The position numbers were made by a program, and so were the translations under genes. The notes beneath the pieces were generated by a model. It did not search any database, had not been told where the DNA came from, and saw only the letters and a program-made list of their open reading frames with translations. From assembly GCA_964574145.1 (NCBI GenBank), contig CAZNKJ010000002.1:2075-66074 (forward strand): DNA of 64,000 nucleotides. Direction: 5' to 3'. The stretch's first letter is position 1; every line of letters begins with the position of its first letter. Below, piece by piece: positions 4,211 to 57,816 of this stretch. The DNA comes from an uncultured Candidatus Saccharibacteria bacterium (GTDB taxonomy: Bacteria; Patescibacteriota; Minisyncoccia; Phycocordibacterales; CAZNKJ01).

Positions 4211-6895
4211 ATGATTACAGGAGAGTGGGAGAAATTGGATACAGAGGGAGTACTCAGAGCGCTTTCCAGTACAAGAAAGAATGGATTAAATGAAGATGAG
4301 GTACTGGTTCGTCAGAAACGAGACGGGAAAAATGTACTTCAAGATCAAAAGAGAGAGAGTTTTGTTGGAAAAGTGGCAAGACAATTTAGAAGTCCTCTTG
4401 TTTTTATATTATTTGTAGCTGGAATAGCTACTGTGTTACTTGCTGAATACATTGATTCAACAGTTATTTTCATCGCCCTTCTTATTAATGTTGTTATCGG
4501 TCTTTTCCAAGAGGAGCGTGCTTCTCGAGCTTTTACAAAACTTAACGAATCGCAAGAGTATTATTCTGTGGTTATTAGAGGTGGTGTAAAGAAAAAAGTA
4601 TTGTCTAAAGAATTAGTACAAGGGGATATTGTGGAGATAGAAGGGGGAAAATATGTTTCAGCAGATCTTAGAATTCTTTTAGAAAAAGACTTATCGTTAA
4701 ACGAGGCAGCTTTAACTGGAGAATGGGTTGCCGTTTCAAAAGATACAAAGGAGCTTTTACAAGGAGTACCTCTTGCTGAGAAGCGTAATATGGTGTGGCG
4801 TGGCACTCTTGTGGCTGAAGGGTATGGTGTTGGGATAGTTGTTGCTACTGGAGATAAAACAGAAATAGGGAAAATATCTCGCGAGCTGGGTACTATTGAG
4901 AAACACGCCACACCTCTTCAACAGAATATTCGCAGTATTGCTCGTTTTCTTTCCTATATTGTCATTGGGTCTGTAATAACCATCTTTCTTCTCGGGATCT
5001 TACGTGGGGAGACAATAGGGGAGATGCTTCTTGTGACTATTGCAATAGCTGTTGCGACTGTGCCTTCAGGTCTTCCTGCTGCTGTAACTATAGTTCTCGC
5101 TTTAGGTATGGAAAAAATCTTAGAGCGTGGAGGGTTGGTACGTAATTTGTTGGCTGCTGAGACACTCGGAGCAACTACAATTATCCTTACTGACAAAACA
5201 GGAACTTTAACTGAAGCAAAGATGAAACTCTCTTCTATTTTTGTTTCTGATACGTTAAATAGAAAGAGAAAACTTTTAGGGTGGACTGATGATGAGAGAA
5301 AAGTTTTAGCAATGGCTGTGATGGCTTCAGACGCTTTTGTTGAAGAGAAAAAAGAAGAGGAAAATATTCCTAGTAAATTAGTAGTTCACGGGAGACCTAT
5401 AGAACGAGCTGTAGTATTGGCTGGGCTAGAGGTGGGGATTTCACAGAATGTTATTTCTAAGGAAATGCCACGTCTTGATTATTTGCAGTTTGAATCAAAA
5501 AGACGTTATGGTGGGTCGCTACATAAATTTCCTGAGAAGAAATCTAACCGCTTTTATATAACAGGATCACCAGAAATGTTGCTTGAAAAAGCCACATATA
5601 TTTATTTAGATGGAAAACAAAAAAAACTCACCGATGCTGTGCGGGCTCAATTTACTAAAATTCAACAGAAATATAGTAAAAAAGGAGAGCGTTTTATTGC
5701 AGTGACATATAAGGATGTAAAATGGGACACCATTCCTAATTTAGAAGATGATAAGTTAGACGAGGAGCTTATTAAAGGTATGGTGTTTGTTGGATTCCTT
5801 TCTTTTAATGATCCTGTACGTGCGGATGTACCTGATGCCATAAAAGAGGTTAAACATGCTGGAGCTCGCGTACTCATGGTTACGGGAGATAACCCTCAGA
5901 CTGCGTTAAATATTGCCATAGCAGTAGGTATAGCAGAGAAAAAGAGTGAGGTTAAGACTGGGAAAGATATTGAAAAATGCAATGATGAGGAACTGTATCA
6001 GCTTATAAAAGAAAATAAAGTGTTTGCTCGCACTTTACCAAGTCAGAAATTACGCATAGCCCGTATTTTGAAGAATAAGGATGAAATAGTGGCTATGACT
6101 GGGGATGGTGTCAATGATGCTCCAGCTTTGCGTAGCGCTGATATTGGGATTGCTGTTGGGAGTGGTACGGAAGTTGCGAAAGAGGCTTCGGACATTATTC
6201 TCCTCAACAACAGTTTTTCTATAATCGTTTCTGCTATTGAAGAAGGAAGAAGGATAATAGATAATCTTAAGAAAATCGTAGCTTACTTGCTCTCTACTAG
6301 CTTTAGTGAAATTTTTGTTATAGGAGGAGCTTTGGCTATGGGAGCGCCTCTCCCTTTATTACCGGCGCAGATTTTGTGGGCGAATATTATTGAAGAGGGT
6401 TTGATGAGTTTTTCATTTGCGTTTGAAAAGAAGGCGCCAGGAATAATGCGTCGTGACCCGCGTGAAAGCGCTTCGCGAAACATAATGACTCCTCGTCTAC
6501 GTCAATTGATAGTGATTGTTGGGGTTACTACTGGGATATTTTTAATAGGTCTTTATTTTTTCTTACTTTCTTTTGATCTACCTATAGAAGAGATTCGTAC
6601 TATTATGTTTGTGGCTCTTTCGCTCGACGCATTGTTTTTTTCTTTTTCATTAAAGAGTTTGAATAGACCACTTTGGAAGATAGACTTATGGTCAAACAAA
6701 TTCTTACTCATGGCTTTTTCAATGAGTGTTTTACTTCTTCTTGCTGCTGTTTCTCTCCAGCCACTTAGAACGCTTCTTTCCCTCACGCCACTTTCAGTTC
6801 TTGATATTTCATTTCTAGTAGGAGTGGGGCTTTTTAATCTATTGACTATTGAATTTGCCAAATATTTTATATTTGAGCGGGGTATGCGTAAATGA
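4211..6895 (+). CDS. P-type cation-transporting ATPase (type II, Ca2+/Mg2+-ATPase-like)
   Basis: DKTGTLT phosphorylation site, MVTGDNPQTA and TGDGVNDAPAL hinge motifs, about 10 TM segments; start moved to the ATG at 4211 (agagg SD 4 nt upstream) instead of the ORF-track start at 4160. Confidence 0.9.
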   Translation: MITGEWEKLDTEGVLRALSSTRKNGLNEDEVLVRQKRDGKNVLQDQKRESFVGKVARQFRSPLVFILFVAGIATVLLAEYIDSTVIFIALLINVVIGLFQEERASRAFTKLNESQEYYSVVIRGGVKKKVLSKELVQGDIVEIEGGKYVSADLRILLEKDLSLNEAALTGEWVAVSKDTKELLQGVPLAEKRNMVWRGTLVAEGYGVGIVVATGDKTEIGKISRELGTIEKHATPLQQNIRSIARFLSYIVIGSVITIFLLGILRGETIGEMLLVTIAIAVATVPSGLPAAVTIVLALGMEKILERGGLVRNLLAAETLGATTIILTDKTGTLTEAKMKLSSIFVSDTLNRKRKLLGWTDDERKVLAMAVMASDAFVEEKKEEENIPSKLVVHGRPIERAVVLAGLEVGISQNVISKEMPRLDYLQFESKRRYGGSLHKFPEKKSNRFYITGSPEMLLEKATYIYLDGKQKKLTDAVRAQFTKIQQKYSKKGERFIAVTYKDVKWDTIPNLEDDKLDEELIKGMVFVGFLSFNDPVRADVPDAIKEVKHAGARVLMVTGDNPQTALNIAIAVGIAEKKSEVKTGKDIEKCNDEELYQLIKENKVFARTLPSQKLRIARILKNKDEIVAMTGDGVNDAPALRSADIGIAVGSGTEVAKEASDIILLNNSFSIIVSAIEEGRRIIDNLKKIVAYLLSTSFSEIFVIGGALAMGAPLPLLPAQILWANIIEEGLMSFSFAFEKKAPGIMRRDPRESASRNIMTPRLRQLIVIVGVTTGIFLIGLYFFLLSFDLPIEEIRTIMFVALSLDALFFSFSLKSLNRPLWKIDLWSNKFLLMAFSMSVLLLLAAVSLQPLRTLLSLTPLSVLDISFLVGVGLFNLLTIEFAKYFIFERGMRK

Positions 6896-6907
6896 TAGAA
6901 TTGAGAT

Positions 6908-7993
6908 ATGAATATTTTTCTATTAGTAATACTTTTTCTAATTCTTGCAGCCAATGGTATTTTGATATGGTTTTTTTTGTGGGAAAGAAGGTTAAAAAAT
7001 CCTAAAGGCGATGGTATGGTTTTGCTTCAAAATCAACTCCAAGACCTTTCTCGAGTGCTGGATTCTAGAGTGGGGGATATTTCAAAACAGATGCAAAAGT
7101 CTGTGGAGACCCAGTTCAGTGAATCACAAAGAGTAATAAGGGATACTAACGATCAAATGGTTAGGCATCTAACCAGTGTTGCCAAGGGCGTTGCTGAAGC
7201 TGCAGAGGCGAGTAAACAGGTCTTTACTATTGCAGACCAGCTAAAAAATCTTGAGAGAGTTCTTACTCACCAAAAACATCGTGGAAATTTAGGTGAAGCA
7301 AGCCTAGAGCTTATTTTGAGCAATATTCTTCCAGCTACTGCTTATAAATCACAGTATAAATTTGAAGATGGTGATATTGTAGACGCGGCAATTATGACAA
7401 AAGAGGGGGTAATTCCTGTTGATGCAAAATTTTCATTAGATAATTACAATCGTCTCATAAATGAAGTAGATAAAGACAAAAAAATTCAATTGGAAAGAGA
7501 TTTTAAGAACGACCTTAAAAAACGTATAGATGAGACTGCAAAGTATATAAAACCAAAAGAGAACACTCTCCCGTTTGCTTTTATGTTTATTCCAGCAGAG
7601 GGGATTTATTATGATCTTTTGGTAAACGAAGTAGGGTCAGTCAAAGTAAATACTCGTAGTTTGATAGACTATGCATACAAAGACAGAAACGTTATTATCG
7701 TTTCTCCTACTACATTTGCGGCATATCTACAATCAGTATTGTATGGTTTTCGTGCTTTTAAAATAGAGGAATCGGCAAAACAAATCGGCAAACATGTGGA
7801 AGACCTTTCAAGACATTTAAAGAGTTATGATGAATATTTTAAAAAAGTTGGTAGTTCACTAGGAACTACGGTGAATCATTACAATTTTGCTCAGAAAGAG
7901 CTTGGAAAAATAGATAAGGATGTGGTTCGTATAACTGGGAACTCTATGGAAGTGGAAAATTTGTCACTTGAGCGTCCCGAGAAAGAAGGCTAG
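6908..7993 (+). CDS. rmuC: DNA recombination protein RmuC
   Basis: N-terminal TM and coiled coil, then RmuC core (HRGNLGE ... PVDAKF ... FMFIPAEG). Confidence 0.8.
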   Translation: MNIFLLVILFLILAANGILIWFFLWERRLKNPKGDGMVLLQNQLQDLSRVLDSRVGDISKQMQKSVETQFSESQRVIRDTNDQMVRHLTSVAKGVAEAAEASKQVFTIADQLKNLERVLTHQKHRGNLGEASLELILSNILPATAYKSQYKFEDGDIVDAAIMTKEGVIPVDAKFSLDNYNRLINEVDKDKKIQLERDFKNDLKKRIDETAKYIKPKENTLPFAFMFIPAEGIYYDLLVNEVGSVKVNTRSLIDYAYKDRNVIIVSPTTFAAYLQSVLYGFRAFKIEESAKQIGKHVEDLSRHLKSYDEYFKKVGSSLGTTVNHYNFAQKELGKIDKDVVRITGNSMEVENLSLERPEKEG

Positions 7994-8054
7994 ATCATCA
8001 AATGTCTTGTAAAAAAGATATGATACTTCAAAAGTATCAAAAAATGTCAAAGAA

Positions 8055-8148
8055 ACGTGTCGAAGTCCGCCTTTGACATCTATTGTCAAAGGCGGACTTC
8101 GACACGGAGACGGGCTTCGAAGGCGTGTCAAAGGCGGACTTCGACACG
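8055..8148. repeat. GC-rich composite repeat: 23-bp inverted repeat (cgtgtcgaagtccgcctttgaca / tgtcaaaggcggacttcgacacg) plus a third direct copy
   Basis: Arms 8055-8077 and 8083-8105 perfectly complementary (loop tctat); third copy 8124-8148; T-run at 8172-8177; generates the spurious ORF 8037..8234. Confidence 0.8.
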
Positions 8149-8290
8149 GACATTGATACGTTTCGACATACGTTTTTTGGAAGCGAGTTAACCTTTTTTT
8201 GAAAAAGGGGGTTTATAATAAAAACTATCACCATAAGGACATCCTGCGGTGGCTTGAATTTTTATTAAAATACTGTACTATAGTGCCACT

Positions 8291-8611
8291 ATGCAAAAAA
8301 TTGCTGTTATAGCCACAGGTGGAAAACAATATGTAGTCTCAGAAGGAGATCTTATTACTATTGAGAAACTGAGTGGAGAACCCAAGGAAGGGGATGTGGT
8401 TACTTTTGATAAAGTGCTTCTTATGGATGATGGAAAGGATGCGATTGTTGGAACTCCATACATAGAGAATACTAAGATTTCAGGCACTCTGGTGGGCTCT
8501 GGTAGGGCTTCTAAGATAACTGTCATACAGTTTAAGTCTAAGAGTAGATATTTTAAGAAGAAAGGACATCGGCAGCCTTTTAATAAAGTAAAAATAAATT
8601 CATTCAAATAA
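8291..8611 (+). CDS. rplU: 50S ribosomal protein L21
   Basis: MQKIAVIATGGKQYVVSEGD N-terminus typical of L21. Confidence 0.95.
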   Translation: MQKIAVIATGGKQYVVSEGDLITIEKLSGEPKEGDVVTFDKVLLMDDGKDAIVGTPYIENTKISGTLVGSGRASKITVIQFKSKSRYFKKKGHRQPFNKVKINSFK

Positions 8612-8647
8612 GAATTAAATATTTTGTATTTTCTTTTATTTGAGATA

Positions 8648-8683
8648 CAAAACCGCATGACTTGTATGTCATGCGGTTTTGTG
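8648..8683. terminator. bidirectional terminator hairpin (aaaccgcatgac / gtcatgcggttt) shared by rplU(+) and recR(-)
   Basis: 12-bp perfect stem, 6-nt loop, flanked by A and T runs. Confidence 0.75.
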
Positions 8684-8714
8684 TAATCTATTAGATTTAG
8701 ACTGTAGACTTTGT

Positions 8715-9335
8715 TTAATTACGGTTTTGCAAAGCATTTTTTATGGTTTCAGTATCTGAATATTCAAGTTCGGTACCGGTGGAAAGTCCTCGTCCAAGTG
8801 TTGAGATTTTGAATCCATATTTTTCTCTAAGAGGGGCTAGGAGTTCATTTAAAAAGTTGGCTGTATTGTCGCCATCAGGGTTATTTGAGAGAGCGAAAAT
8901 AACCTCTTCGCACCTTTTGTTTTTGCATTCTTTTTCTATGCGCGATAAAAGTTCTTTACTTCGTATATAACGTTCTGGTTCTTTTTCTAGAATAGGCACA
9001 GTACCCCCTATGACAAAATAGTATCCTTTGTATGCACTACTTCGTTCTATATTTTCCAAGTCAACATCTTTTTCTACTATCATAATTTCAGATAAGTTTC
9101 TGTTTTGGTTATTGCAAATAGCGCAGAGCTTTTCATTTTCACTATGTGTTTCAAAAAAGCGGAAACACTTATTACATAGAGATACTTCATTTCTTAATTC
9201 CTTTAAATTAGAAGAAAGTTCGTCTAGAAAGTGAGAATTACGCGTGAGCAAAAAATATACGAAACGTCTAGCTTGTCTTGGACCAATGCCAGGGAATTGT
9301 CTAAAAGACTCTACCAGTTTTTCTATAGAACTCAT
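8715..9335 (-). CDS. recR: recombination protein RecR
   Basis: FRQFPGIGPRQARR HhH motif, C4 zinc finger, Toprim domain. Confidence 0.95.
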   Translation of the reverse strand: MSSIEKLVESFRQFPGIGPRQARRFVYFLLTRNSHFLDELSSNLKELRNEVSLCNKCFRFFETHSENEKLCAICNNQNRNLSEIMIVEKDVDLENIERSSAYKGYYFVIGGTVPILEKEPERYIRSKELLSRIEKECKNKRCEEVIFALSNNPDGDNTANFLNELLAPLREKYGFKISTLGRGLSTGTELEYSDTETIKNALQNRN

Positions 9336-20150: not shown

Positions 20151-21452
20151 TCAACGAAGAGTGTCGGCATCTCGTAAGTAGTCTAATGGATTGAGATAAG
20201 CTTCGTATGGGGCTATTGGTATAGTAACTACTTTTCCGTTACTTTTACAGGTGTATTTTGTTAACACAACAGCGTCTGCTATGTAGGTGGTAAAGTGTAG
20301 ATGAGGACCTATTGAGTATCCTGTATTACCGGAAAATCCTATAACATCTCCAGTACTAACTGTCTGTCCAGCTTTTACACTAACTACTGATAGGTGCGCG
20401 TACAGAGTAGAAAGTCCATTGTTGTGTTGTATTAGTATCCATTTCCCATACTGGCAATAGCGCACAGAGCCAAGATTTATAGCCTTAACTGTCCCCCCTA
20501 AGGATGCATATACAGACGTTCCTTCTGATGCTCTCAAGTCAACACCGTTATGTCCCTTCCCATTGTATCCTCCAGATCGGGCAAATGGAGTATTTCCAAA
20601 GTACTGAGTAACCCTGAGTCTATTAAGAGGCCATCCGAGTACCCCCTGACCTACAGAAGGAATGGAGTTTGGGTTAAGTGTGAATTTAAGTTGAGATTCC
20701 AGGTCTTGCAAATCTTTTTCAAAACGTTTTTGTGCAGCGCGTTTTGTAGTAAGTAACTTTTGATAGGAGGTCTCTTTGCTTTTGGTAATGGTCAAGAGCT
20801 GGTTTTTTTCAGAACGGTTGTTGTCCAGCACCTTTTTCTTGCCAGCAAGTTCTTTTTTATAAGTAGAAAGTTTGGAGCGCTGTCTCTCAGATTCTTTTTT
20901 CCTTGTTTCTAACTCTTTTTTAAGTAGAGTTAGTTTTTTAACATCTTCTTGCATAACCAATTGAAAACGTTCCATAGTTGTTACTTGGTCCCAGGTTTCA
21001 GAAAGATTCTTATTGGCAAGAATTGTTTCTATAGGTGAATTAGATTCTATTTCATAAATAGTACGTATGGTTTTAGCTATAGCTTTCTTGTTTTGAATTA
21101 CTGTTTTTTCTTTATTAACAATTTCAGTCTTAATTTCTTCTAAAGTAAGATCCGTTGTTTTGATTTTATATTTTGTCAAAGAAATATCTGTTGAGATTTT
21201 TTTTCTGGAGAGATCCAAAGTTTTAATTGCTCTTTGTAAAGTTTTCTTTTCTTTCCCTACTATTCGCAGATCAGCTTCATGTTTATTAATTTCACCTTCT
21301 AGTTTTTTGATTAATTCATTTCTGTTCTCTATCCTTTCTTTTATCTCTTTTTCTGTTGCTGGTTGGGCAAATACATAGTTATTTACCCATACAAATTGTG
21401 TAAATAGAATAATAATAACTATATATATAGTTTTGTTGAGTTCAATTTTCAT
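20151..21452 (-). CDS. M23 family metallopeptidase with N-terminal coiled-coil (EnvC-like)
   Basis: Signal/TM, long coiled coil, HNGVDL and GNTGYSIGPHLHF M23 motifs. Confidence 0.85.
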   Translation of the reverse strand: MKIELNKTIYIVIIILFTQFVWVNNYVFAQPATEKEIKERIENRNELIKKLEGEINKHEADLRIVGKEKKTLQRAIKTLDLSRKKISTDISLTKYKIKTTDLTLEEIKTEIVNKEKTVIQNKKAIAKTIRTIYEIESNSPIETILANKNLSETWDQVTTMERFQLVMQEDVKKLTLLKKELETRKKESERQRSKLSTYKKELAGKKKVLDNNRSEKNQLLTITKSKETSYQKLLTTKRAAQKRFEKDLQDLESQLKFTLNPNSIPSVGQGVLGWPLNRLRVTQYFGNTPFARSGGYNGKGHNGVDLRASEGTSVYASLGGTVKAINLGSVRYCQYGKWILIQHNNGLSTLYAHLSVVSVKAGQTVSTGDVIGFSGNTGYSIGPHLHFTTYIADAVVLTKYTCKSNGKVVTIPIAPYEAYLNPLDYLRDADTLR

Positions 21453-47603: not shown

Positions 47604-49448
47604 TTATTCAAGAATCGCTTTTATTCGACGAACACCTGCTGAACTTGCTTCTTCCTTTTTAATTTTAAAATGTCCAAGTATTTTTGTGTTTTCTACGTGA
47701 GGACCACCACAACATTCTATACTGTAGTTTCCAATCTTATATACTTTAACAATATCGTCATATTTTTCTCCAAACAAACCTATTGCACCAAGAGACCTTG
47801 CTTTTTCTAAAGACATTTCCTCGCAAGTAACTTTAAGGTTGTCAGAAATTTTTTCATTAACAATGTTTTCTACTTTTTGTTTTTCTTCCATAGTTAATTT
47901 TTTCTCATGAGAAAAATCAAAACGTAGACGTAAGTCGGTAATATTACTGCCACGCTGTTCAACAGTGTCCCCAAGTACATCTTTTAAAGCTTGGTGTAGT
48001 AAGTGTGTAGCAGTGTGATATTTTATAGACATTTCTTCATGATCTGCTAGACCTCCCTTGAATTTTTGTTTAGCTCCTAATCTTGAAGTTTCTTGATGCT
48101 TGAGCATTTCTTTTTTGAAACCTTCTTCATCAACTTTTATTCCCTTTTCTTGTGCTAATTCTCGAGTTAATTCAAATGGAAATCCATAAGTTGAAAAAAG
48201 TATAAAGGCGTTTCTGCCCGTAATATCTGAATTTGAAAATTTATTAAACTGTTTTAACCCCAGATCTAGTGTGATAGAAAATCTTGCTTCTTCTTCTGAT
48301 ATAATTTTATTTATTTTAATTTCTTGGTCACCAATATTTGGATACTGTTTTTTGTATTCTTCAGCTATTACATTTACAAATGAACCAATAGTTATATCTG
48401 GTTTTAACTTATGCAATTGAAGAATCGCTCTTCTCAGAAGTCTACGTATAAAATACCCTTGTTCCGTATTGCTTGGATACACACCATCTCCTATCATAAA
48501 AACAGCTCCACGAATATGGTCTGCGATTACTCTGAAGGCAAATTTGTTGTCAGCATACTCTTTGCTTGTTAATTCTTCTATTTTTTTTATTATATTCCAC
48601 AAGCTATCTACTCTAAAAACATCCCCGTCATTATTTGCAGCCGCTGTGATCCGTTCTAGACCTCCTCCAAAATCAACATTTCGTTGTTTCATTTCAGCAA
48701 ATGAATCATTTTTATTTTTTATATATTGCATAAAAACAGAATTTCCTATCTCCATAAACCTCCCACAATCACAATTTGGATGACAGTGTTTGCCGAAAGA
48801 TTTATCGTGAGGAATATCAAATTCATAGAAAATCTCAGAATCTGGCCCTCCTGGTTCTCCTGCAGGCATATTTTCAGGAACCCCAGTTCTTGACCACCAG
48901 TTTTTTTTAGCATCATAGTAAAAGATACGTTCTCCTTCTTTCATTCCCCGATCTCCACCATTTTTTTCACTTCCTATATAGATGTCTTTTGCAACAATCC
49001 CTTTACTGATGAATAATTGTTTCCAGATAGAGGCTGATTCAATATCTCTTGGTATATTATTTGATTTATCTCCAGCAAAGACGGTTACATAACACCTGTT
49101 TGGGTCTAATGAAATTTTTTCAATTAAAAATTCAAAACACCAACTAAGTTGATCTTCTTTAAAATATTCTCCTAAAGACCAGTTGCCAAGCATTTCAAAA
49201 AAAGTTGTGTGACGATTATCCCCCACTTCCTCTATGTCTTCCGCTCGAAAACATTTTTGTGAATCTACCAACCTTTTTCCTTGAGGATGTTCTTTACCCA
49301 ATAGATATGGTAATAAAGATTGCATACCAGATCCAGTAAATAAAGTGGTTGGGTCGTTTTCTGGCACTAAAGAGGCTGATGGTATTACAACATGTTTTTT
49401 TTCTTTGAAGAAATCTAGATATAATCTTCTTATTTCATTTGTTTTCAT
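47604..49448 (-). CDS. alaS: alanine--tRNA ligase, compact form lacking the C-Ala domain
   Basis: TLFTGSGMQ class II motif; editing-domain HxxxH (HTATHLLHQAL) and CGGPH; 614 aa. Confidence 0.9.
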   Translation of the reverse strand: MKTNEIRRLYLDFFKEKKHVVIPSASLVPENDPTTLFTGSGMQSLLPYLLGKEHPQGKRLVDSQKCFRAEDIEEVGDNRHTTFFEMLGNWSLGEYFKEDQLSWCFEFLIEKISLDPNRCYVTVFAGDKSNNIPRDIESASIWKQLFISKGIVAKDIYIGSEKNGGDRGMKEGERIFYYDAKKNWWSRTGVPENMPAGEPGGPDSEIFYEFDIPHDKSFGKHCHPNCDCGRFMEIGNSVFMQYIKNKNDSFAEMKQRNVDFGGGLERITAAANNDGDVFRVDSLWNIIKKIEELTSKEYADNKFAFRVIADHIRGAVFMIGDGVYPSNTEQGYFIRRLLRRAILQLHKLKPDITIGSFVNVIAEEYKKQYPNIGDQEIKINKIISEEEARFSITLDLGLKQFNKFSNSDITGRNAFILFSTYGFPFELTRELAQEKGIKVDEEGFKKEMLKHQETSRLGAKQKFKGGLADHEEMSIKYHTATHLLHQALKDVLGDTVEQRGSNITDLRLRFDFSHEKKLTMEEKQKVENIVNEKISDNLKVTCEEMSLEKARSLGAIGLFGEKYDDIVKVYKIGNYSIECCGGPHVENTKILGHFKIKKEEASSAGVRRIKAILE

Positions 49449-49538: not shown

Positions 49539-51326
49539 TTAAAGTAGTTTGTCTAATTTTTTGATATCGTTTTCTATACTCTCTATTCCTTTTTTGAAAA
49601 AATTTGGATTTCTGGTGTCTATTCCAATATTCATAAAAATTTCTTCTGGTGAGGTACTCGCTCCAGCAGATAAGAAAGATTTTATTTCATTTTTGAAATT
49701 TTTATTTTCTCTATATTTTTCTACCATAGCTCTACTTATTATTTGACCGTAAGCATATGAATATACGTAAAAGAATCGTCGAAAATGAGACACAGCTACA
49801 AAAAAATATCCATCCAAGTCTTTTAAAGAAAAAAGAGGACCTAGGTATTCTTTCATGTGTTTATTTAGTGTCTTCGCTATCTTTTCTTTAGACATGAACC
49901 CCTCCTCTCTTATTTTTACATGTAATTCCTCTTCAAAATTAAAAAAGGCTATTTGTCTAAAAATAGAATTGACATCATCACTTATTTTGTCATGTAAAGC
50001 TATCTTTTTTTCTGAATAAGACAAGTTTTTAAATATTGCATCAAAAGCTAATTGTTCAAAAAGAGTACTTGCTGTCTCTGCGACAGAAGTGCTGTGTCCT
50101 TGGTAGAAAGCAGGCTGTTTTTTAGACATCTCAGCGTGTATAGCATGACCCATCTCGTGTGCGAGAGTTGTGTAAGATCTAAAATCATTTGTATGATTAA
50201 GTAGCACCATAGTTGGTACTCCAACAGAACTAGAACAATAAGCTCCACCTGTCTTCCCTTTTTGTGGGTACACATCTATCTGCCCCTTTTTTAGAAAAGA
50301 ATTAAATATATCTAGATACTTAGGATCAATGTCTTTTAATACGTCTCGATAAAGATCACAAGCATCTTTGAATAAAATTTTATGTTTTGTTTTTCCTACA
50401 GAAGCATTTCTATCAACATATTTCAGTTTTTTTAAGCCCAACATTTTACTTTTTACTTCGTAGAAACGATGTGCAACATTGTTCATTTCAGTTACACACT
50501 TTACAAGACCAATTACACTTTTTTCTTCATTTTCGTAACCTAATATAGTAGAACTATATGGTTTTTTAAAACCGCGCAATTCGTCATCTGTCTTTTTATT
50601 TAATACCACTGCATTTAATTCACTTTCAGCAAAATCACTGATCTCTTTAAACTTACCGAGAATAGAATCGTGCAGACTATGTCGATCTTTTGTTTTTAAA
50701 GAAGGGAGGATACCCATTGCTTCTGCAATAGGTAATTTTTTTTTCTTGTAAGTAATTATTTGAGTAGAAATCAATTTATCAACTCCATCTACCCATAAGG
50801 AGTAACTGGTCTGTGATTTTAGGTTTAAGATTTTCTCTTCAGGTTCGGATAAATCATATTTACTTTCTTCAAAAATTCTTTTCAGGAAATAACGATACTT
50901 GCCCAGAGTTGGATTGTTTAGAAAACTTTTTTGTAACTTGGAATCAATACGACCAAGCCTTAACAGAAAAAACAAAATTTTATTACCTAATTTTGTAAAC
51001 TCATCTTCCAGTTTAGTAAGTTTGGAGACAGCGTCCGAATCCGATGAATTAAGTTCTTTTAAATATAGATAATAAAACAAAGCACGCTCCCCAGAGGAGT
51101 CTGCTTCTAGTTTTTCATAATCCTCTAAAGCATGTAACAGTTTATTTGCATCTTTAAGATAGTCTGTTTTTGGTTTGTACTTTTTTTCAAAAGCAATAAT
51201 TATTTTTTTCTCTTTTTCAACGTCACTCTTTATATCTTTAGAATTTCGTGAATTATAAAAAAGCTGTAAATTCCACTTTGTTTTCATATTAATATCTGCT
51301 GTATTATGTATTAATAGATCTGACAA
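49539..51326 (-). CDS. pepF: oligoendopeptidase F (peptidase M3B)
   Basis: HEMGHAIH zinc motif, 595 aa. Confidence 0.9.
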   Translation of the reverse strand: MSDLLIHNTADINMKTKWNLQLFYNSRNSKDIKSDVEKEKKIIIAFEKKYKPKTDYLKDANKLLHALEDYEKLEADSSGERALFYYLYLKELNSSDSDAVSKLTKLEDEFTKLGNKILFFLLRLGRIDSKLQKSFLNNPTLGKYRYFLKRIFEESKYDLSEPEEKILNLKSQTSYSLWVDGVDKLISTQIITYKKKKLPIAEAMGILPSLKTKDRHSLHDSILGKFKEISDFAESELNAVVLNKKTDDELRGFKKPYSSTILGYENEEKSVIGLVKCVTEMNNVAHRFYEVKSKMLGLKKLKYVDRNASVGKTKHKILFKDACDLYRDVLKDIDPKYLDIFNSFLKKGQIDVYPQKGKTGGAYCSSSVGVPTMVLLNHTNDFRSYTTLAHEMGHAIHAEMSKKQPAFYQGHSTSVAETASTLFEQLAFDAIFKNLSYSEKKIALHDKISDDVNSIFRQIAFFNFEEELHVKIREEGFMSKEKIAKTLNKHMKEYLGPLFSLKDLDGYFFVAVSHFRRFFYVYSYAYGQIISRAMVEKYRENKNFKNEIKSFLSAGASTSPEEIFMNIGIDTRNPNFFKKGIESIENDIKKLDKLL

Positions 51327-51353: not shown

Positions 51354-51917
51354 TTAAATTTTGCGTAAAAAGAATTTATAATCACTGAAAACTTTTTCTA
51401 GTTTTTTTACGATAGGTGATTTTAATTTTGATTTAATTATCTCTATTATTTCTTCATAAAATTCTATTCGGGTTTCAACAGTTCCTGAAAATTCTTTAAG
51501 AAAAGAAGAAGGTACTTCCTTGTACCCAATTAGAATAGAAGCAAAATTATGTATTTTATCCGCCGAAGCAACAAGCAAGGATTCTGTAGGCGCAGACTTT
51601 AATCCTGTGATATATCCCTTTTTTCTCTTCCCCCAAGACTTTGCATTTTTAGGTTCAGTAACACCAACCACTATATTTCTTACTTTAGCTCCAAAATCCT
51701 TCAACATTTTTTCTTCTGTATATTCGGTGTCTTCTAAGGTGTCATGCAAAAGTGCTGCGATAATGATATCTTCATCATTGGTGTAATTAGAGACTATCAA
51801 AGCTACAGAAAAAAGGTGGGTAATATAAGGAAGCTGAACAGAACCCTTACGTTTCTGTCCTTTGTGAAATTCTCCTATAACACAAATAGCTTTTTCTATT
51901 CTGTCGGAATATTTCAT
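51354..51917 (-). CDS. small HD-domain (p)ppGpp hydrolase (RelA/SpoT hydrolase-domain-only, Mesh1/SAH-like)
   Basis: HKGQKRKGSVQLPYITHLFSVA ... AALLHDTLEDT ... ADKIHN matches the RelA/SpoT HD consensus. Confidence 0.75.
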   Translation of the reverse strand: MKYSDRIEKAICVIGEFHKGQKRKGSVQLPYITHLFSVALIVSNYTNDEDIIIAALLHDTLEDTEYTEEKMLKDFGAKVRNIVVGVTEPKNAKSWGKRKKGYITGLKSAPTESLLVASADKIHNFASILIGYKEVPSSFLKEFSGTVETRIEFYEEIIEIIKSKLKSPIVKKLEKVFSDYKFFLRKI

Positions 51918-52522
51918 TAGCCCACCTTGTTAAGAGTGGCTAATACTTTAAAATCTTTCTCCAGAGTAGTTATTAGATCTCTATTATATATAGCTGCCGC
52001 AGGATGATATTGAGGTGCTATGAGTACAGGTCCATAAGATGTTTTAGTTTTATATATTTTGCCATGAGCTGTGCTGATTGGTTCAAGTTCAGACTCAAGA
52101 TCAAATTTCTTCATGATATAAATCATTGAATAACGACCTAGGGTTGCAATAACAGAGGGTTGAATTATCTCTATTTGCCTATCTAGGAAAGGTCCGTATA
52201 TCTCTATTTCAGAAGGAAGTGGGTCTCGGTTTTCAGGAGGACGATCTTTTACTATATTAGTTATATAAACGTCTTCTCGCGCAATTTTTATAGAAGCGAG
52301 CAATCTATCTAAAGTTTTTCCAGCCGCGCCGCAAAAAGGTTTCCCTTGTTTAGCCTCATTTCTTCCTGGCGCTTCACCAATAAACATAATATTTGCATTA
52401 TGATCACCTTCTCCAAGGACAGGATAGTAATTATTTTCTGTACGAAAATTATATAGCGGAGATTTGTTTAAAGTAAAAACCTCATCTCGTATAGATTCCA
52501 TCTCTTTTGTTTTGTTTTTCAT
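51917..52522 (-). CDS. uracil-DNA glycosylase family 4
   Basis: GEGDHNANIMFIGEAPGRNE and FCGAAGKTL motifs. Confidence 0.85.
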   Translation of the reverse strand: MKNKTKEMESIRDEVFTLNKSPLYNFRTENNYYPVLGEGDHNANIMFIGEAPGRNEAKQGKPFCGAAGKTLDRLLASIKIAREDVYITNIVKDRPPENRDPLPSEIEIYGPFLDRQIEIIQPSVIATLGRYSMIYIMKKFDLESELEPISTAHGKIYKTKTSYGPVLIAPQYHPAAAIYNRDLITTLEKDFKVLATLNKVG

Positions 52523-52803
52523 AGAGCTTTTTCTTTTTTAAGCATCTCTATTTTCTTTTGTCTACCACCATTATATCCTCCTGGGGTGCCATTCTTACGT
52601 ATGACACGATGACATGGTATATCTGGATTGTGGTTCGCTTTCATTATATTTCCAACAGCTCTGTGTGCGAGAGGGTTACCTGCTTTCTCAGCAACTTCTT
52701 TGTAAGACATTGTTTCGCCTGAAGGAATAGCTTTTACTATAAAAAGTACCCTGTCTTTAAACCCTAGCTGATCTAAATATTTAAATATCTTACTCATAAT
52801 CAA
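52519..52803 (-). CDS. ogt: methylated-DNA--protein-cysteine methyltransferase (short, C-terminal-domain-only form)
   Basis: SYKEVAEKAGNPLAHRAVGN ... IPCHRVI active-site cysteine. Confidence 0.8.
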   Translation of the reverse strand: MIMSKIFKYLDQLGFKDRVLFIVKAIPSGETMSYKEVAEKAGNPLAHRAVGNIMKANHNPDIPCHRVIRKNGTPGGYNGGRQKKIEMLKKEKAL

Positions 52804-52813
52804 TTAGGTTGTA

Positions 52814-53698
52814 TTAAAACAAGGTTGGAGTATCGCTCAAACTTTCTCTACACACGTCTTTTCTTTGTCTTTTCTGCTTGGTTCGACCTTGATCCAGATA
52901 CATTTTTTGTAATTTTTTCCCGGAAGCCTCTCTATAAGAACAAAATTCACAATTATTACCTGAGATGGGAATATTATTACTCTCAAGACATTTTTTGATT
53001 TTCTCCAAAGTTGGTTCTATCCATTCTGTTTGTCCATCACATGGAACGACTGTTATTTCAAATTTTAATTTTCCATCAAAAACATCCTCTTCGGCACGAG
53101 CATTAGCATAAACAAAATATCCAGTTTTACTTACAGGAAAATTATTTTGAAGAAGAAGCCATTGATATACTCCTATTTGTCTCTTGTATTGATCTTCCCA
53201 AGAAGAATCAGATAAAGATTCTATTCTTCCTTTTTTAGAAGTTGATTTATAATCAACTACAATCAGCTCCCCTCTTTCATTTTGCCATATATCATCTACG
53301 GCTCCTGAAACAATAAAACCTGTAGGTTTATGTGTAAACTGTAAACCTTTAAAATTTTCTCTCCAAATATCCATATCTTTATGTTCATACGGTATTGCTT
53401 TAATAGAGTTTTGTGTCATTAGAGGGTGTGATTCCTTTTTTGCACGATAAATATCAAACTCTTTTTTAAAGAGAGTATCAACTGCTATATTTATAGTAAA
53501 AGCAGGCCCTCTTGGGCGGGCTGTGCCTAATTTATTGTTCAAATAGAAACAACGAGGACATTCTATAAAAAGATCTATTTTTGATCGAGAAAGCCTCCAT
53601 TTTTTACCTCCATAATTCCAATCTGAAGAACGGTTTGGGTTATATGCCATTGGCAATACTATATCACAGACATAGCAACATCTGGTATAGAGATTCAA
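52814..53698 (-). CDS. Cas4-like PD-(D/E)xK (RecB-family) nuclease with Fe-S cysteines, standalone
   Basis: SKIDLFIECPRCFYL (Cas4 N-terminal Cys motif), VVDYKST, QYKRQIGVYQWLL (QhxxY), C-terminal C-x12-C-x2-C. Confidence 0.7.
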   Translation of the reverse strand: MNLYTRCCYVCDIVLPMAYNPNRSSDWNYGGKKWRLSRSKIDLFIECPRCFYLNNKLGTARPRGPAFTINIAVDTLFKKEFDIYRAKKESHPLMTQNSIKAIPYEHKDMDIWRENFKGLQFTHKPTGFIVSGAVDDIWQNERGELIVVDYKSTSKKGRIESLSDSSWEDQYKRQIGVYQWLLLQNNFPVSKTGYFVYANARAEEDVFDGKLKFEITVVPCDGQTEWIEPTLEKIKKCLESNNIPISGNNCEFCSYREASGKKLQKMYLDQGRTKQKRQRKDVCRESLSDTPTLF

Positions 53699-54195
53699 TC
53701 TTCGTCTTCAAAATCATCATCTACTACACGAGTATGGTTTCCATCATAGGAAAAAAACTTCAAACGACTCTCGACAAACCAAAGAATAGAAAAAACAAAA
53801 AGAGTTAAAATGGTTGTGAAAGTTGCTAAAATATATAATTTATAACCAGTAGCTACTCCAACACCTGCAGCTACCCAAAGACCTGCTGCTGTTGTAATTC
53901 CGCGCACTGATGATTCTCTGACAATAATGAGCCCTGCTCCGATAAAGCCAACCCCTGTAATAATTCCCGACATGACACGAAGAGGGTCCACATTCGTAAT
54001 ACCTATCAAAGTTTGTGCAACTACAGTTGAAATTATAATAAACAAACAAGCTCCTAGAGAAACGAGTGCGTATGTACGCATTCCCGCAGTTTTTCCAGCT
54101 ATTGCTCTTTCGGCTCCCAAAGACATACCTAATATCATAGCGATAAGTAGTTGTAAAAAGAGAGATATTTCTGAGCTAATGGATAATATTTCCAT
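53695..54195 (-). CDS. MgtC/SapB family membrane protein
   Basis: GMSLGAERAIAGKTAGMRTYALVSLGACLF. Confidence 0.8.
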   Translation of the reverse strand: MEILSISSEISLFLQLLIAMILGMSLGAERAIAGKTAGMRTYALVSLGACLFIIISTVVAQTLIGITNVDPLRVMSGIITGVGFIGAGLIIVRESSVRGITTAAGLWVAAGVGVATGYKLYILATFTTILTLFVFSILWFVESRLKFFSYDGNHTRVVDDDFEDED

Positions 54196-54221: not shown

Positions 54222-54731
54222 CTAAATAGTTTCAAATGTAGCCATTATTGGTTGCTGGTCTTTATCAATAAGAATAGAATCCACACCTAACTCAAAAGCT
54301 CTATCTCCATTGTCGCTATAAAGTACAGCATAATATATATTACCGGGGGTAGTGTCTCGAAGAAGCTCTACACTACCTCGCGAAACACCCTCTGGGAACA
54401 AGTAAGCCCCTAGTACGTTACCTAACTTACCATTAAGGTCTTCATGTATAGCAACCCATCCTGAGTGTTCAAGAATTACATTAGAAACACGAACATAACT
54501 TCCCGCCTCTTGATTAACAATATCTACTCGTGCTGTTTCGCCAGAGAGAACAGGAAAACCTTTCTTTGTTAATGTTCTTTCTTCTTTTGTTATCACCTTT
54601 TCTTCCTTTTGGTATTTTTCAGAATTTTTAACTTTAGTATCGATATTCCATATTAAAACAGTACCGATTCCTATAGTAAATCCAACAAAAGCAGAAATGA
54701 GAATTTTTTGATTTATTGAAAGTGTATACAT
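54222..54731 (-). CDS. membrane-anchored protein of unknown function
   Basis: N-terminal TM then about 130-aa soluble domain; no family recognised. Confidence 0.4.
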   Translation of the reverse strand: MYTLSINQKILISAFVGFTIGIGTVLIWNIDTKVKNSEKYQKEEKVITKEERTLTKKGFPVLSGETARVDIVNQEAGSYVRVSNVILEHSGWVAIHEDLNGKLGNVLGAYLFPEGVSRGSVELLRDTTPGNIYYAVLYSDNGDRAFELGVDSILIDKDQQPIMATFETI

Positions 54732-55642: not shown

Positions 55643-56743
55643 TCAGACAATAATACCTCCCCCTAAACACCTTAATCCTTTGAAACCCTTAACTGACCCT
55701 TCTTCATATAACACCACAGATTGTCCACTTGAGACCAGAGGAAGAGTGTCTTTAAAGCATACTTTTGCAGTATTTTCGTCTTTTATAGCTATCAAAACAC
55801 TAAGCAAGTTACCTCGTAATCGTACCCTTGCTTTATATAGTTTATTTTTTTGCGGGATATCACCTATCCAATTGGTGTTCTTTATATTCAATTCATCAGA
55901 TTTTTTATTCAAAGATACTGGTTGGTTAGAAACTATTAAGATGTTTTCTTTTATATCCTTACCAACCACATAGAGAGCTTTGTGTAAAGATGTATCAGTT
56001 ATATGAAAACCGTGTCGCTCCCCCAAAGTAAAAAACTCAACTCCGTCATGTGTACCAACCTTCTTACCTGTCTCAGAGAGAACCACACACCCTTTTTTAC
56101 CAACAATGTAGTGGTGTAAGAAGTCTTTCATATTTATTGACCCAATAAAACATAACCCCTGACTATCTTTTTTCCGGGCAGTAGGTAAAGCATGCTTTAC
56201 AGCGATTCGGCGTGTTTCTTTTTTATTCATTCCACCAACAGGAAACTGCATAGACAGGAGGCTAGCATTTTCAACCGCCCACAGAAAATATGATTGATCT
56301 TTCTCCTTATCAACAGATTCCCAAAGAGTTGGAGTTTCGTTATTAAAAATTTGAGCATAATGCCCTGTAGCAACACCATCAGCCCCCATCTTTTTTGCCC
56401 ACTCAAGAAAAGCTCCAAATTTCACTTCCTTATTGCACAAAACATCAGGATTAGGAGTAAGTCCTTTATTATAACATTGCAACATTACCTCTATCACGCT
56501 TTTTTTATATACAGCCTCCAAGTCCAATGTTTTAAAAGTTATTCCAAGGTGAGCACAAACACGCATTGCGTCAAGTCTATCTTCTTTCCATGTACATTGA
56601 ATAAAATCAGGTTGCCATACTTTTATGAACACACCAACTACCTCATAATCCTGTTTCTTCAAAAGTAACGCGGAAACTGAACTATCTACTCCACCAGAGA
56701 GTCCGACATATATCTTTTTTCTTTTCTTATCCGAGTTAGTCAC
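55643..56743 (-). CDS. mnmA: tRNA-specific 2-thiouridylase MnmA
   Basis: PP-loop IYVGLSGGVDSSVSA, MnmA cysteines. Confidence 0.9.
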   Translation of the reverse strand: MTNSDKKRKKIYVGLSGGVDSSVSALLLKKQDYEVVGVFIKVWQPDFIQCTWKEDRLDAMRVCAHLGITFKTLDLEAVYKKSVIEVMLQCYNKGLTPNPDVLCNKEVKFGAFLEWAKKMGADGVATGHYAQIFNNETPTLWESVDKEKDQSYFLWAVENASLLSMQFPVGGMNKKETRRIAVKHALPTARKKDSQGLCFIGSINMKDFLHHYIVGKKGCVVLSETGKKVGTHDGVEFFTLGERHGFHITDTSLHKALYVVGKDIKENILIVSNQPVSLNKKSDELNIKNTNWIGDIPQKNKLYKARVRLRGNLLSVLIAIKDENTAKVCFKDTLPLVSSGQSVVLYEEGSVKGFKGLRCLGGGIIV

Positions 56744-56784: not shown

Positions 56785-57816
56785 TTATCTCAGATAAAGA
56801 AATTTTTTACCCCTGTGCTCTTTGAAAGTAACGCTATAGTGCACATTCCCTTTCTTATCTGCAAGAAAATACAAATAATCTGTTTTTGTTGGAAAGATTG
56901 CAGCTTCTATGGAATCCAAGCTAGGACTTCCGATCGGCCCAGGAGGTAATCCTGTATATTTGTATGTATTATATAGCGAGTCAATGTCCAAATCTTTTTG
57001 TGTTAATTCAAACGTATTTTTACCGTTTATATAATCAAAAGTAACATCAACCTGCAAAGGCATCCCTATTTTTATTCGTTCCCACAATATACCAGAAATA
57101 ATACGACGAGACTTTGAAGTGTACGCTTCTTTCTCAATGAGAGATGCCATTGTGATTATATCCTTAAGTGAACGCCCTGAATTTTCTATATCTTTTTGAT
57201 ATATTTTTATTTTTTTATAAAAAGTTTTTTCTAAAGAATCCGCTATTTTTTTTTCGGAAATATTGGGTAAAAAATAATAAGTATCTGGAAAAAGATACCC
57301 TTCTTTGTTTTTAGTCAAATTTAAAAATTTTTCAGAATTAAAATTTCTAAATCGCTTAGCTAGTTTAGTGGCCATATCAACTCGAGAAACTCCTTCCTGA
57401 AGCCTTACTTTAAGTGGCTTTAATCCGAAATCACCTACCGTGACCATATAAGCTATCTTAGGAATACCATATGGATGGCTAAAAAAATAATCTCCTGCAG
57501 AAAAAGAACGCTCACCTCCCATAATTCTTACCAAAACAGAAAACCAAAAACTAGAGCGGATTACATTTTTTTGTTTAAAAGAATCGGCTGTTTCTTGAAG
57601 AGAAGCTCCTTTAGGTATGGATATTATTTGTTCATCTGGGAAAGACAAAGGTGGTATAAAAAATACTAAAAAAATATACAGAAAAAAAGCAGATATTGCT
57701 GTTACAACATAAATATGATTTGTACGTTTTTTATTTTTATATAATAGTAAAAATATCCTACTAAAATAGTTAAAATATTTTTTATATATGCGAATGGCTT
57801 TCTGCAAAAAATTCAT
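56785..57816 (-). CDS. mltG: endolytic murein transglycosylase MltG (YceG family)
   Basis: N-terminal TM, YceG domain. Confidence 0.8.
   Translation of the reverse strand: MNFLQKAIRIYKKYFNYFSRIFLLLYKNKKRTNHIYVVTAISAFFLYIFLVFFIPPLSFPDEQIISIPKGASLQETADSFKQKNVIRSSFWFSVLVRIMGGERSFSAGDYFFSHPYGIPKIAYMVTVGDFGLKPLKVRLQEGVSRVDMATKLAKRFRNFNSEKFLNLTKNKEGYLFPDTYYFLPNISEKKIADSLEKTFYKKIKIYQKDIENSGRSLKDIITMASLIEKEAYTSKSRRIISGILWERIKIGMPLQVDVTFDYINGKNTFELTQKDLDIDSLYNTYKYTGLPPGPIGSPSLDSIEAAIFPTKTDYLYFLADKKGNVHYSVTFKEHRGKKFLYLR

Follow-up and report, generated by a model that had tools for sequence, protein, structure and literature searches.

The DNA analysed here is a 64,000-nt stretch (the window) of contig CAZNKJ010000002.1, which belongs to a core Paceibacteria (Patescibacteria/candidate phyla radiation, CPR) chromosome. 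Its GC content is 32-40%, and the homologues of its genes are annotated as Patescibacteria, Paceibacterota or Parcubacteria. The minus strand carries four consecutive genes that potentially encode a stand-alone Cas4-like nuclease (hereafter Cas4L), an O6-alkylguanine-DNA alkyltransferase (Ogt), a family 4 uracil-DNA glycosylase (UDG) and a protein with a single HD_4 domain (the HD protein) (Table 1). An initial annotation of this region, made from the letters of the sequence, had described these four genes as a translationally coupled module. Pfam and NCBIfam models agreed with it on the domains of all four minus-strand open reading frames (ORFs) between 51354 and 53650. Moreover, an identical contig in the database has been gene-called independently, with the same genes and the same starts as in the assignment based on Pfam and NCBIfam.

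Table 1. Coordinates of the Cas4L cluster, its motifs and junctions, and the neighbouring genes in the window.
Feature	Positions	Strand	Basis
Cas4L, stand-alone PD-(D/E)XK (RecB/Cas4/Dna2-type) nuclease, 278 aa	52814-53650	-	PDDEXK_1 53.4 bits; ATG 53650
Cas4L N-terminal CPRC (C31, C34) of the metal site	53549-53560	-	sequence and alignments
Cas4L (D/E)xK catalytic motif, D133-Y-K135	53246-53254	-	read from the sequence
Cas4L C-terminal CEFC (C234, C237) of the metal site	52940-52951	-	sequence and alignments
Cas4L C-terminal peptide PTLF, conserved short linear motif	52817-52828	-	homologue and orthologue alignment
Ogt, O6-alkylguanine-DNA alkyltransferase, C-terminal domain only, 92 aa	52519-52797	-	PF01035 (DNA_binding_1) 95.6 bits (cutoff 27); TIGR00589 76.4 bits (cutoff 46.4)
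Ogt active site PCHRV, Cys62 codon	52612-52614	-	sequence
Ogt/UDG stop/start overlap, ATGA	52519-52522	-	sequence (...GCT CTA TGA) and independent gene call
Family 4 UDG, 201 aa	51917-52522	-	TIGR00758 187.4 bits (cutoff 125.3)
UDG motif A, GEAPG	52364-52378	-	sequence
UDG/HD one-base overlap, TAATG (GGC TAA TG)	51917	-	sequence and independent gene call
HD protein, putative RelH/Mesh1-type small alarmone hydrolase, HD_4 only, 187 aa	51354-51917	-	PF13328 57 bits (cutoff 27.2)
HD protein H58-D59 codons	51741-51746	-	sequence
MltG/YceG	56785-57816	-	Pfam/NCBIfam
MnmA	55643-56743	-	Pfam/NCBIfam
ATP-cone + Mrr_cat (AF1548-like) protein, 275 aa	54782-55609	-	Mrr_cat 30.4 bits
DUF7282	54222-54731	-	Pfam
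MgtC	53695-54195	-	Pfam
M3 oligoendopeptidase (PepF)	49539-51326	-	Pfam/NCBIfam
Alanyl-tRNA synthetase (AlaRS)	47604-49448	-	Pfam/NCBIfam

Cas4L exceeds the Pfam gathering score of PF12705 (PDDEXK_1), a family of the PD-(D/E)XK fold, and its motifs SRSKIDLFIECPRCFY, VVDYKST and RQIGVYQ are present and conserved. Among 124 diverse family representatives, D119/D120, D133-x-K135 and Q158-xxx-Y162 are each kept in 96-99% of the sequences, with Asp at position 133 in 120 and Lys at position 135 in 123 of them. Four conserved cysteines, C31, C34, C234 and C237, make up a CxxC + CxxC (2+2) pattern that is kept in 95-98% of the same representatives (121, 119, 119 and 118 sequences, respectively), and the CPRC motif is invariant among close homologues. 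C204 is replaced by Tyr or His in most family members, the cysteine of KKCLES is variable even in close relatives, and neither the 124 representatives nor the alignment of close homologues contained a third conserved C-terminal Cys. The canonical Cas4 pattern consists of one N-terminal and three C-terminal cysteines (C...CxxCx5C), and that of AddB is likewise 1+3. A 2+2 arrangement thus stands in Cas4L where Cas4 and AddB have 1+3. The four cysteines are compatible with either an Fe-S or a Zn site, which presumably staples the N- and C-terminal helices. The full Cas4 signature announced in the initial annotation was thus recovered as far as the nuclease motifs are concerned, including CPRC, VDYKST and QxxxY; the three C-terminal cysteines were not, and the protein scores below the Cas4 threshold.

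Hidden Markov model searches, which had been recommended for this ORF, gave no match to PF01930 in Pfam at E<=0.01, a score of 35.3 bits with the NCBIfam cas4 model TIGR00372 (cutoff 65) and weak scores of about 39 bits with the PADLOC Cas4 models, PF12705 being the family that did match. A PDB sequence search with Cas4L returned nothing at E<=1, and only fold searches were informative. The matches of its AlphaFold model (predicted local distance difference test score, pLDDT, 79.7) were DNA-end-processing nucleases throughout, Dna2, Cas4, RecE, AdnA, MGME1 and Exo5 being about equal and AdnA, Cas4 and Exo5 taking the top Foldseek ranks. The name "Cas4-like" is correct at the superfamily level; membership of the CRISPR Cas4 family is not. 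The alternative raised with the initial annotation, that the ORF is a fragment of a RecB- or AddB-type protein, was rejected because Cas4L is a complete stand-alone protein, and it is also the most conserved gene of its neighbourhood.

This conservation is extensive. A sequence search with Cas4L produced at least 8000 significant candidates, the best 120 of which are 61-73% identical to the query, and clustering of the family at 50% identity left 2267 representatives at E<1e-3 and 353 at E<1e-30. The gene is present in at least 576 GTDB species representatives and is widespread in Paceibacteria. Compared with the genes that accompany it in related genomes, it has the highest median identity (60%, versus 56% for AlaRS and 45% for MnmA). 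Cas4L is under strong constraint. A clade-specific peptide near its N-terminus, YNPNRSxDWNYGG (residues 3-15, low pLDDT), is invariant.

The end of the protein is of a different nature. Past the C-terminal CxxC, the tail is variable, rich in Lys, Pro, Ser and Thr and predicted to be disordered (pLDDT <50 for residues 267-278), and it terminates in ...SDTPTLF. Of the 120 closest homologues, 11 have a long tail, and each of these finishes with xLF or LG(L/I); among 69 GTDB orthologues, about half have (D/G)(T/Q/S)LF or (T/S)LG(I/L) at this place, some of them with one additional residue. Bacterial beta-clamp-binding motifs have two known forms, QL[S/D]LF and QLVLGL, and usually lie at the extreme C-terminus (PMC3716654). 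The last three positions of the Cas4L tail are like those of the clamp motifs, whereas the conserved Gln is missing from it. Binding of this peptide to the beta clamp is a lead suggested by the sequence and no established result; should it prove true, replication or repair would be a more probable role than defence.

Translation of ogt starts at ATG 52797 and not at TTG 52803. The two-domain architecture of Ogt was not found, PF01035 being present alone at residues 15-92, and such one-domain proteins (81-114 aa) are the rule in related loci. The active-site motif IPCHRVI is intact, and PCHRV is kept in 31 of the 31 orthologues examined. Since alkyltransferase-like (ATL) proteins are devoid of the active-site Cys and PCHRV is intact here, the product does not belong to them.

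The predicted UDG passes the family 4 model, reaches 110.9 bits with the Pfam UDG domain and stays under the cutoff of the archaeal equivalog NF040953 (208.8 versus 250). Family 4 UDGs have been described as [4Fe-4S] enzymes with four Cys ligands (PMC5295032). The window UDG has one Cys in total, the four Fe-S ligands were not found in it, and it reads NIVKDRPPENR where the family 4 motif KCRPP carries a cluster-ligand Cys. The same Cys is replaced in other Paceibacteria UDGs, with KDRPP in the window and 8 of 10 motif-matched orthologues and KYRPP in the other 2; the orthologues lie in loci L011, L027, L032, L041, L048, L059, L065, L074, L077 and L079. Twelve Paceibacteria family 4 orthologues contain 0-5 Cys each. 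From these residues, the window UDG and its Paceibacteria orthologues look like a cluster-less clade of family 4.

The HD protein consists of one HD_4 domain and has no synthetase domain. In the PDB it is matched best by RelH of Corynebacterium glutamicum (7QOC, E 1.7e-27, residues 4-165), an experimentally active (p)ppGpp hydrolase (PMC9293644). Residues R23, H34, H58, D59, E62, D63, D120 and N124 correspond to R24, H34, H58, D59, E62, D63, D122 and N126 of the C. glutamicum enzyme, which amounts to the full set of metal and catalytic residues, and the orthologues retain HDxxED and ADKxxN. The product can be regarded as a RelH-type, putative alarmone hydrolase. The proposed (p)ppGpp-hydrolase-only protein is thus synthetase-less and RelH-like as stated, while the accompanying claim that it degrades an alarmone is a prediction from homology. 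Small alarmone hydrolases are promiscuous and also hydrolyse pppApp and NADPH (PMC9765508).

Three stop/start overlaps had been put forward as links between these genes. Those of the Ogt/UDG and UDG/HD junctions are real (Table 1), and the sequence AGGTGG lies a few bases upstream of the latter. The third, between MgtC and Cas4L at 53695-53698, turned out to be a longest-ORF artefact that needs an upstream TTG at 53698. The real Cas4L start is ATG 53650, separated from the MgtC stop by a 44-nt spacer: a database protein of exactly 278 aa (P0001) matches it with 100% identity and coverage, and 19 homologues start at the equivalent Met-Ala.

The cluster is contained in a minus-strand run of 44 co-directional genes (20151-63668). 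After correction of the starts, the 43 junctions of this run have a median spacer of 17 nt, with 22 spacers of at most 20 nt and six overlaps, which also occur in a consecutive pair at 21442/22820 and at the DnaK/DnaJ junction. Because tight packing is general in the run, overlaps are not special to the cluster. They are compatible with translational coupling without singling the cluster genes out, and Ogt, UDG and the HD protein are plausibly coupled in this way. All genes annotated across about 5-29 kb and 34-64 kb of the window are housekeeping genes, including those for ribosomal proteins, RpoA, GrpE-DnaK-DnaJ, DnaB, RecR, RmuC, ScpA/B, MraY-FtsW-MurG and several aminoacyl-tRNA synthetases. 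As noted in the initial annotation, the 64 kb contain no CRISPR-like array detectable by TRF or the repeat finder.

To place the cluster among its relatives, 80 loci with a Cas4L orthologue (51-69% identical) were taken from GTDB species representatives, and homologues of the window neighbours were located by tblastn. Denominators for the neighbours are the loci with enough flanking sequence. Counts are those of tblastn and not of the noisy greedy longest-ORF gene picking, which was set aside because antisense ORFs displaced real genes. A syntenic block emerged with the order MltG-MnmA-Mrr/ATP-cone-(DUF7282)-(MgtC)-Cas4L-Ogt-(UDG)-(HD)-(peptidase)-AlaRS, parentheses marking variable members. 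Upstream of Cas4L, the Mrr-like gene was found in 64 of 75 loci and MnmA in 60 of 70; downstream, AlaRS was found in 49 of 64, Ogt within 400 nt in 47 of 75, any UDG within 3 kb in 32 of 69 and HD within 3.5 kb in 18 of 66. The Mrr-like/ATP-cone gene, the most constant upstream neighbour, directly abuts Cas4L in about ten loci; elsewhere MgtC (37 of 80 loci) and DUF7282 (33 of 80) occur as variable inserts between the two. The Mrr_cat product of the window has a restriction-endonuclease fold (1y88 match, E 1e-32), its weak N-terminal ATP-cone scoring 20.5 bits, under the Pfam cutoff.

The part of the block behind Ogt is less uniform. Clustering of the unassigned ORFs showed that the UDG slot holds a family 4 UDG in nine loci and a family 1 Ung, with motifs GQDPYH and HPSPFS, in 23, never both. 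In L034, L046 and L062, the Ung gene is inverted, yet abuts Ogt. The slot before AlaRS contains peptidases of four families (M3 PepF, M16, M13 and S9), polyamine genes, a NUDIX gene or transporters. The polyamine genes encode carboxynorspermidine synthase and decarboxylase and a homospermidine synthase-like protein. Where HD is present, PepF usually follows it directly. Ogt, any UDG and HD occur together in five of the 80 loci (L008, L027, L034, L045 and L046), and the exact Cas4L-Ogt-UDG4-HD-PepF order of the window only in L027. The expectation that the gene order is conserved in relatives was therefore borne out for Cas4L-Ogt-UDG and not for the four-gene set, which recurs in one locus of 80. 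A separate context was seen in L020, L042, L057 and L073, where a PolB-exonuclease-like 3'-5' exonuclease gene lies upstream of Cas4L and YchF downstream. A comparison of Cas4L identity with neighbour identity, intended to separate vertical from horizontal inheritance, was discarded: its weak negative correlations are selection artefacts, because all relatives lie at much the same distance and Cas4L similarity was the basis on which the loci had been picked.

These results showed that what is conserved is a large block of housekeeping synteny in which the UDG/HD slot varies. Cas4L is the anchor of the neighbourhood, followed by Ogt and then by the variable slot, filled here by the apparently cluster-less UDG and the RelH-type HD protein. 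The co-regulated repair operon of the initial annotation survives in its two overlaps and in the recurring order, and gives way to the larger block in that what is conserved around it is housekeeping and that its UDG/HD part varies.

Taken together, these features make it reasonably probable that the four genes form a co-directional DNA-maintenance neighbourhood within a compact housekeeping array, probably co-transcribed, whose four enzymes act independently. The cluster genes would then be transcribed together with their neighbours. Ribosomes ending on ogt would re-initiate on udg at the ATGA, and those ending on udg would re-initiate on the HD gene at the TAATG. Ogt would move O6-alkyl groups onto its own Cys62 by direct reversal, and UDG would remove uracil. 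Cas4L would thread and trim 5' single-stranded DNA ends or flaps arising from repair or recombination, and may be tethered to a partner via its C-terminal xTLF peptide. The HD enzyme would strip the 3'-pyrophosphate off (p)ppGpp-like nucleotides, with no mechanistic dependence expected between it and the other three.

Several observations weigh against this interpretation. MnmA, MltG and AlaRS are kept at least as well as Ogt, so that background synteny could explain the adjacency; since neighbours without a repair role are retained to this degree, synteny alone is no proof of a module. In six loci the backbone synteny is lost, and four of these share the context with the 3'-5' exonuclease gene and YchF. 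Only one of the six, L044, retains Ogt directly beside Cas4L, in surroundings that are otherwise unrelated; in two of them a family 4 UDG is encoded on the opposite strand at a distance of 3.5-5.4 kb, and HD is absent from all six. Co-transcription is unproven, because the scans for its signals were uninformative: between 47 and 60.5 kb, a consensus sigma-70 search gave 39 promoter-like sites where 50.7 were expected from shuffled sequence, and an intrinsic-terminator search found none at the cluster gene boundaries. Lastly, fusions of Cas4L relatives with HD_4 and NUDIX domains hint at a nuclease-hydrolase link tighter than that of independent enzymes.

These fusions underlie another explanation, in which Cas4L and the RelH-type HD protein are a true two-component module and Ogt and UDG are passengers. 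The substrate of the HD protein would be a nucleotide or a 3'-(pyro)phosphorylated nucleic-acid end, whose processing would license or complement cutting by the nuclease. The two domains are indeed fused in two proteins, P0142 (415 aa) and P0291 (459 aa), which are 57% identical to each other and whose HD_4 domains are 35-36% identical to the window HD protein. In P0291 (35%), HDxxED and ADRxHN are intact, whereas YD replaces HD in P0142. Both are complete genes, each the last of a restriction-modification (R-M) operon, one of the composition SNF2-N6_N4 methylase-ResIII-DUF4357 and the other hsdM-hsdS-hsdR. A second nucleotide-pyrophosphatase fusion, Cas4L::NUDIX, forms a cluster of 46 members in a Planctomycete-like context (P0124), and other fusions among the 50%-identity representatives are GYF-TIR::Cas4L (P0153), GYF::Cas4L (P0143) and DUF2779::Cas4L (P0175); the loci of this NUDIX/TIR/GYF/DUF2779 set are L083-L085, at about 5800-7180. 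The HD_4 and NUDIX fusions provide independent, rare support for a link between the nuclease and a hydrolase of either type, and HD lies close downstream in the 18 Paceibacteria loci counted above, with a NUDIX gene in that place in at least L041. However, HD_4 fusions make up just two clusters among thousands of family members, one of them with the altered YD; HD is missing from about 73% of the Cas4L loci; six homologues of the HD protein obtained independently from metagenomes (42-46% identical) are flanked by none of Cas4L, Ogt and UDG, genes that were missing from all seven loci of the small HD-centred contig scan, which weakens an obligate link; and two genes separate HD from Cas4L in the window. 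We consider such a module unlikely.

Pure hitch-hiking would assume that the genes are unrelated in function and regulation and stay together through genome compaction and slow rearrangement in the clade. It would account for the retention of MnmA, MltG and AlaRS around Cas4L as often as that of Ogt or more often, for the overlaps and short spacers found genome-wide, and for the peptidases of four families, polyamine genes and transporters that also occupy the post-Ogt slot. It does not account as readily for two UDG families, 23 of family 1 and nine of family 4, sharing the same place in a mutually exclusive manner. Moreover, three of the four products act on DNA, Ogt still adjoins Cas4L in the rearranged L044, and Cas4L-HD fusions exist elsewhere. 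Hitch-hiking alone is not a likely explanation for the cluster.

The initial picture of concerted end processing and base repair could be taken further, the four genes being a dedicated lesion/end clean-up unit and no chance neighbourhood; Cas4L and the HD protein would form a previously undescribed functional pair, and in Paceibacteria a clamp-binding-like C-terminal peptide, xTLF or TLG(I/L), would in addition recruit the nuclease to the replisome. We regard this as rather improbable.

An anti-phage or domesticated defence locus has also to be considered, in which the Mrr_cat/ATP-cone protein, Cas4L and the HD protein would act on invading DNA and Cas4L would carry out post-restriction degradation, as RecBCD does elsewhere, in a CRISPR-less lineage. 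Distant members of the family (about 45-55% identical) are the last genes of type I and type III-like R-M operons. Besides the HD_4 fusions, an unfused member is the last gene of an SNF2-methylase-ResIII-DUF4357 operon that a Chlamydiales genome carries on an integrase-bearing element. The Cas4L genes of these R-M operons lie at 8001-9248 (L082), 7001-8380 (L088) and 6001-6750 (L089/L090), one being on an integrase/RepB-primase Chlamydiales element. Further members occur on phage-like contigs and on nine IMG/VR contigs, and the TIR and GYF fusions, the constancy of the restriction-endonuclease-fold gene upstream of Cas4L and the weak PADLOC Cas4 score point in the same direction. Part of the Cas4L family thus works in defence or mobile-element contexts. 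The Paceibacteria Cas4L, on the other hand, is widespread, strongly conserved and fixed in a housekeeping block, the opposite of patchy defence genes with a fast turnover. There is no methyltransferase or specificity subunit near the window copy, PADLOC gave no match for HD, Ogt or UDG and a marginal one (19 bits) for the Mrr-like protein, and Cas4L has two repair enzymes, Ogt and UDG, as its immediate partners. A defence function of the window locus is therefore doubtful, and we give it little weight.

A bona fide CRISPR adaptation Cas4 serving a CRISPR-Cas locus elsewhere in the genome is hardly credible and was rejected, for although some sources name close homologues "CRISPR/Cas system-associated exonuclease Cas4 (RecB family)" and the fold resembles Cas4, the protein is below the Cas4 model cutoff and has the 2+2 Cys pattern, the window holds no array, cas1, cas2 and arrays are not among the conserved neighbours of the 80 loci, and pfam12705 branches without CRISPR association exist (PMC5704561).

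Some further features of the window lie away from the cluster. Rfam models at the gathering threshold matched nothing in the 64 kb, and ARAGORN detected no tRNA gene in it, despite the many genes for ribosomal proteins and aminoacyl-tRNA synthetases. Behind a perfect GC-rich 22-bp inverted repeat (8058-8079/8084-8105, plus strand), positions 8126-8150 hold a second, exact direct copy of 25 nt. Lying in the intergenic space between RmuC (which ends at 7993) and the L21 gene, this sequence may act as a bidirectional terminator or represent a repeated palindrome that separates convergent genes.

As regards novelty, the combination of genes had been presented as one not seen before. The literature consulted contained no description of the Ogt/UDG neighbourhood or of family 1 and family 4 UDGs replacing each other in the same slot, nor of the HD_4, NUDIX and TIR fusions, the 2+2 Cys pattern, the Cas4L C-terminal peptide or a cluster-less family 4 UDG. 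In contrast, a stand-alone Cas4-like gene in a CRISPR-less CPR genome is already known: a catalogue of solo Cas4 and pfam12705 Cas4-like genes appeared in 2017 (Hudaiberdiev et al., PMC5704561). The new details add incrementally to families that are already known, and the "module" is for the most part inherited synteny. The locus looks like an ordinary DNA-maintenance neighbourhood and not like a new system. It is of interest in that Patescibacteria have minimal genomes and their DNA maintenance is poorly understood. Cas4L, more conserved than alanyl-tRNA synthetase across the class and located beside Ogt and UDG, is well placed as a candidate core enzyme of end processing in these bacteria.

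When the individual proteins are compared with known ones, the window Ogt shares with Ogt/MGMT the DNA_binding_1 domain and the intact PCHRV, and differs by being without the N-terminal (Methyltransf_1N-type) domain. The window UDG passes the model of the UDGa-type family 4 enzymes and has their GEAPG motif, without the four [4Fe-4S] cysteines. The HD protein has the single HD_4 domain and the same catalytic residues as the RelH/Mesh1 small alarmone hydrolases, and its gene adjoins DNA-repair genes instead of being a toxSAS partner or an orphan. Compared with the RecB-like 5' end-processing nucleases that carry an Fe-S "iron staple", namely Dna2, AddB, AdnA/AdnB and Exo5, Cas4L has 9-20% identity, and its locus has neither a helicase domain nor a helicase partner. 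Cas4-like domains have also been found beside type III R-M genes, including UvrD-Cas4 fusions (PMC5704561). Distant Cas4L relatives similarly close type I or III-like R-M operons, but they are unfused or fused to HD_4 and not to UvrD, and the window copy is outside any R-M context.

The closest resemblance is to the solo-Cas4 and pfam12705 proteins. CPR and DPANN genomes without CRISPR are enriched in such proteins, for which "uncharacterised defence or repair functions" have been suggested (PMC5704561). Cas4L is likewise a stand-alone PD-(D/E)XK protein with four metal-site cysteines, encoded outside CRISPR-cas in a small CPR genome. It differs from solo-Cas4 by the CxxC...CxxC arrangement of these cysteines and by scores below the Cas4 cutoffs, and that work makes no mention of the Ogt/UDG neighbourhood, of fusions with HD_4, NUDIX and TIR domains or of a C-terminal peptide of the form xTLF/TLG(I/L). 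Relatives of both groups are found in phages and next to R-M genes. The rare fusions with RelH-type HD and NUDIX domains provide a testable lead on what a stand-alone Cas4-like protein does outside CRISPR, a question that has stood since 2017.

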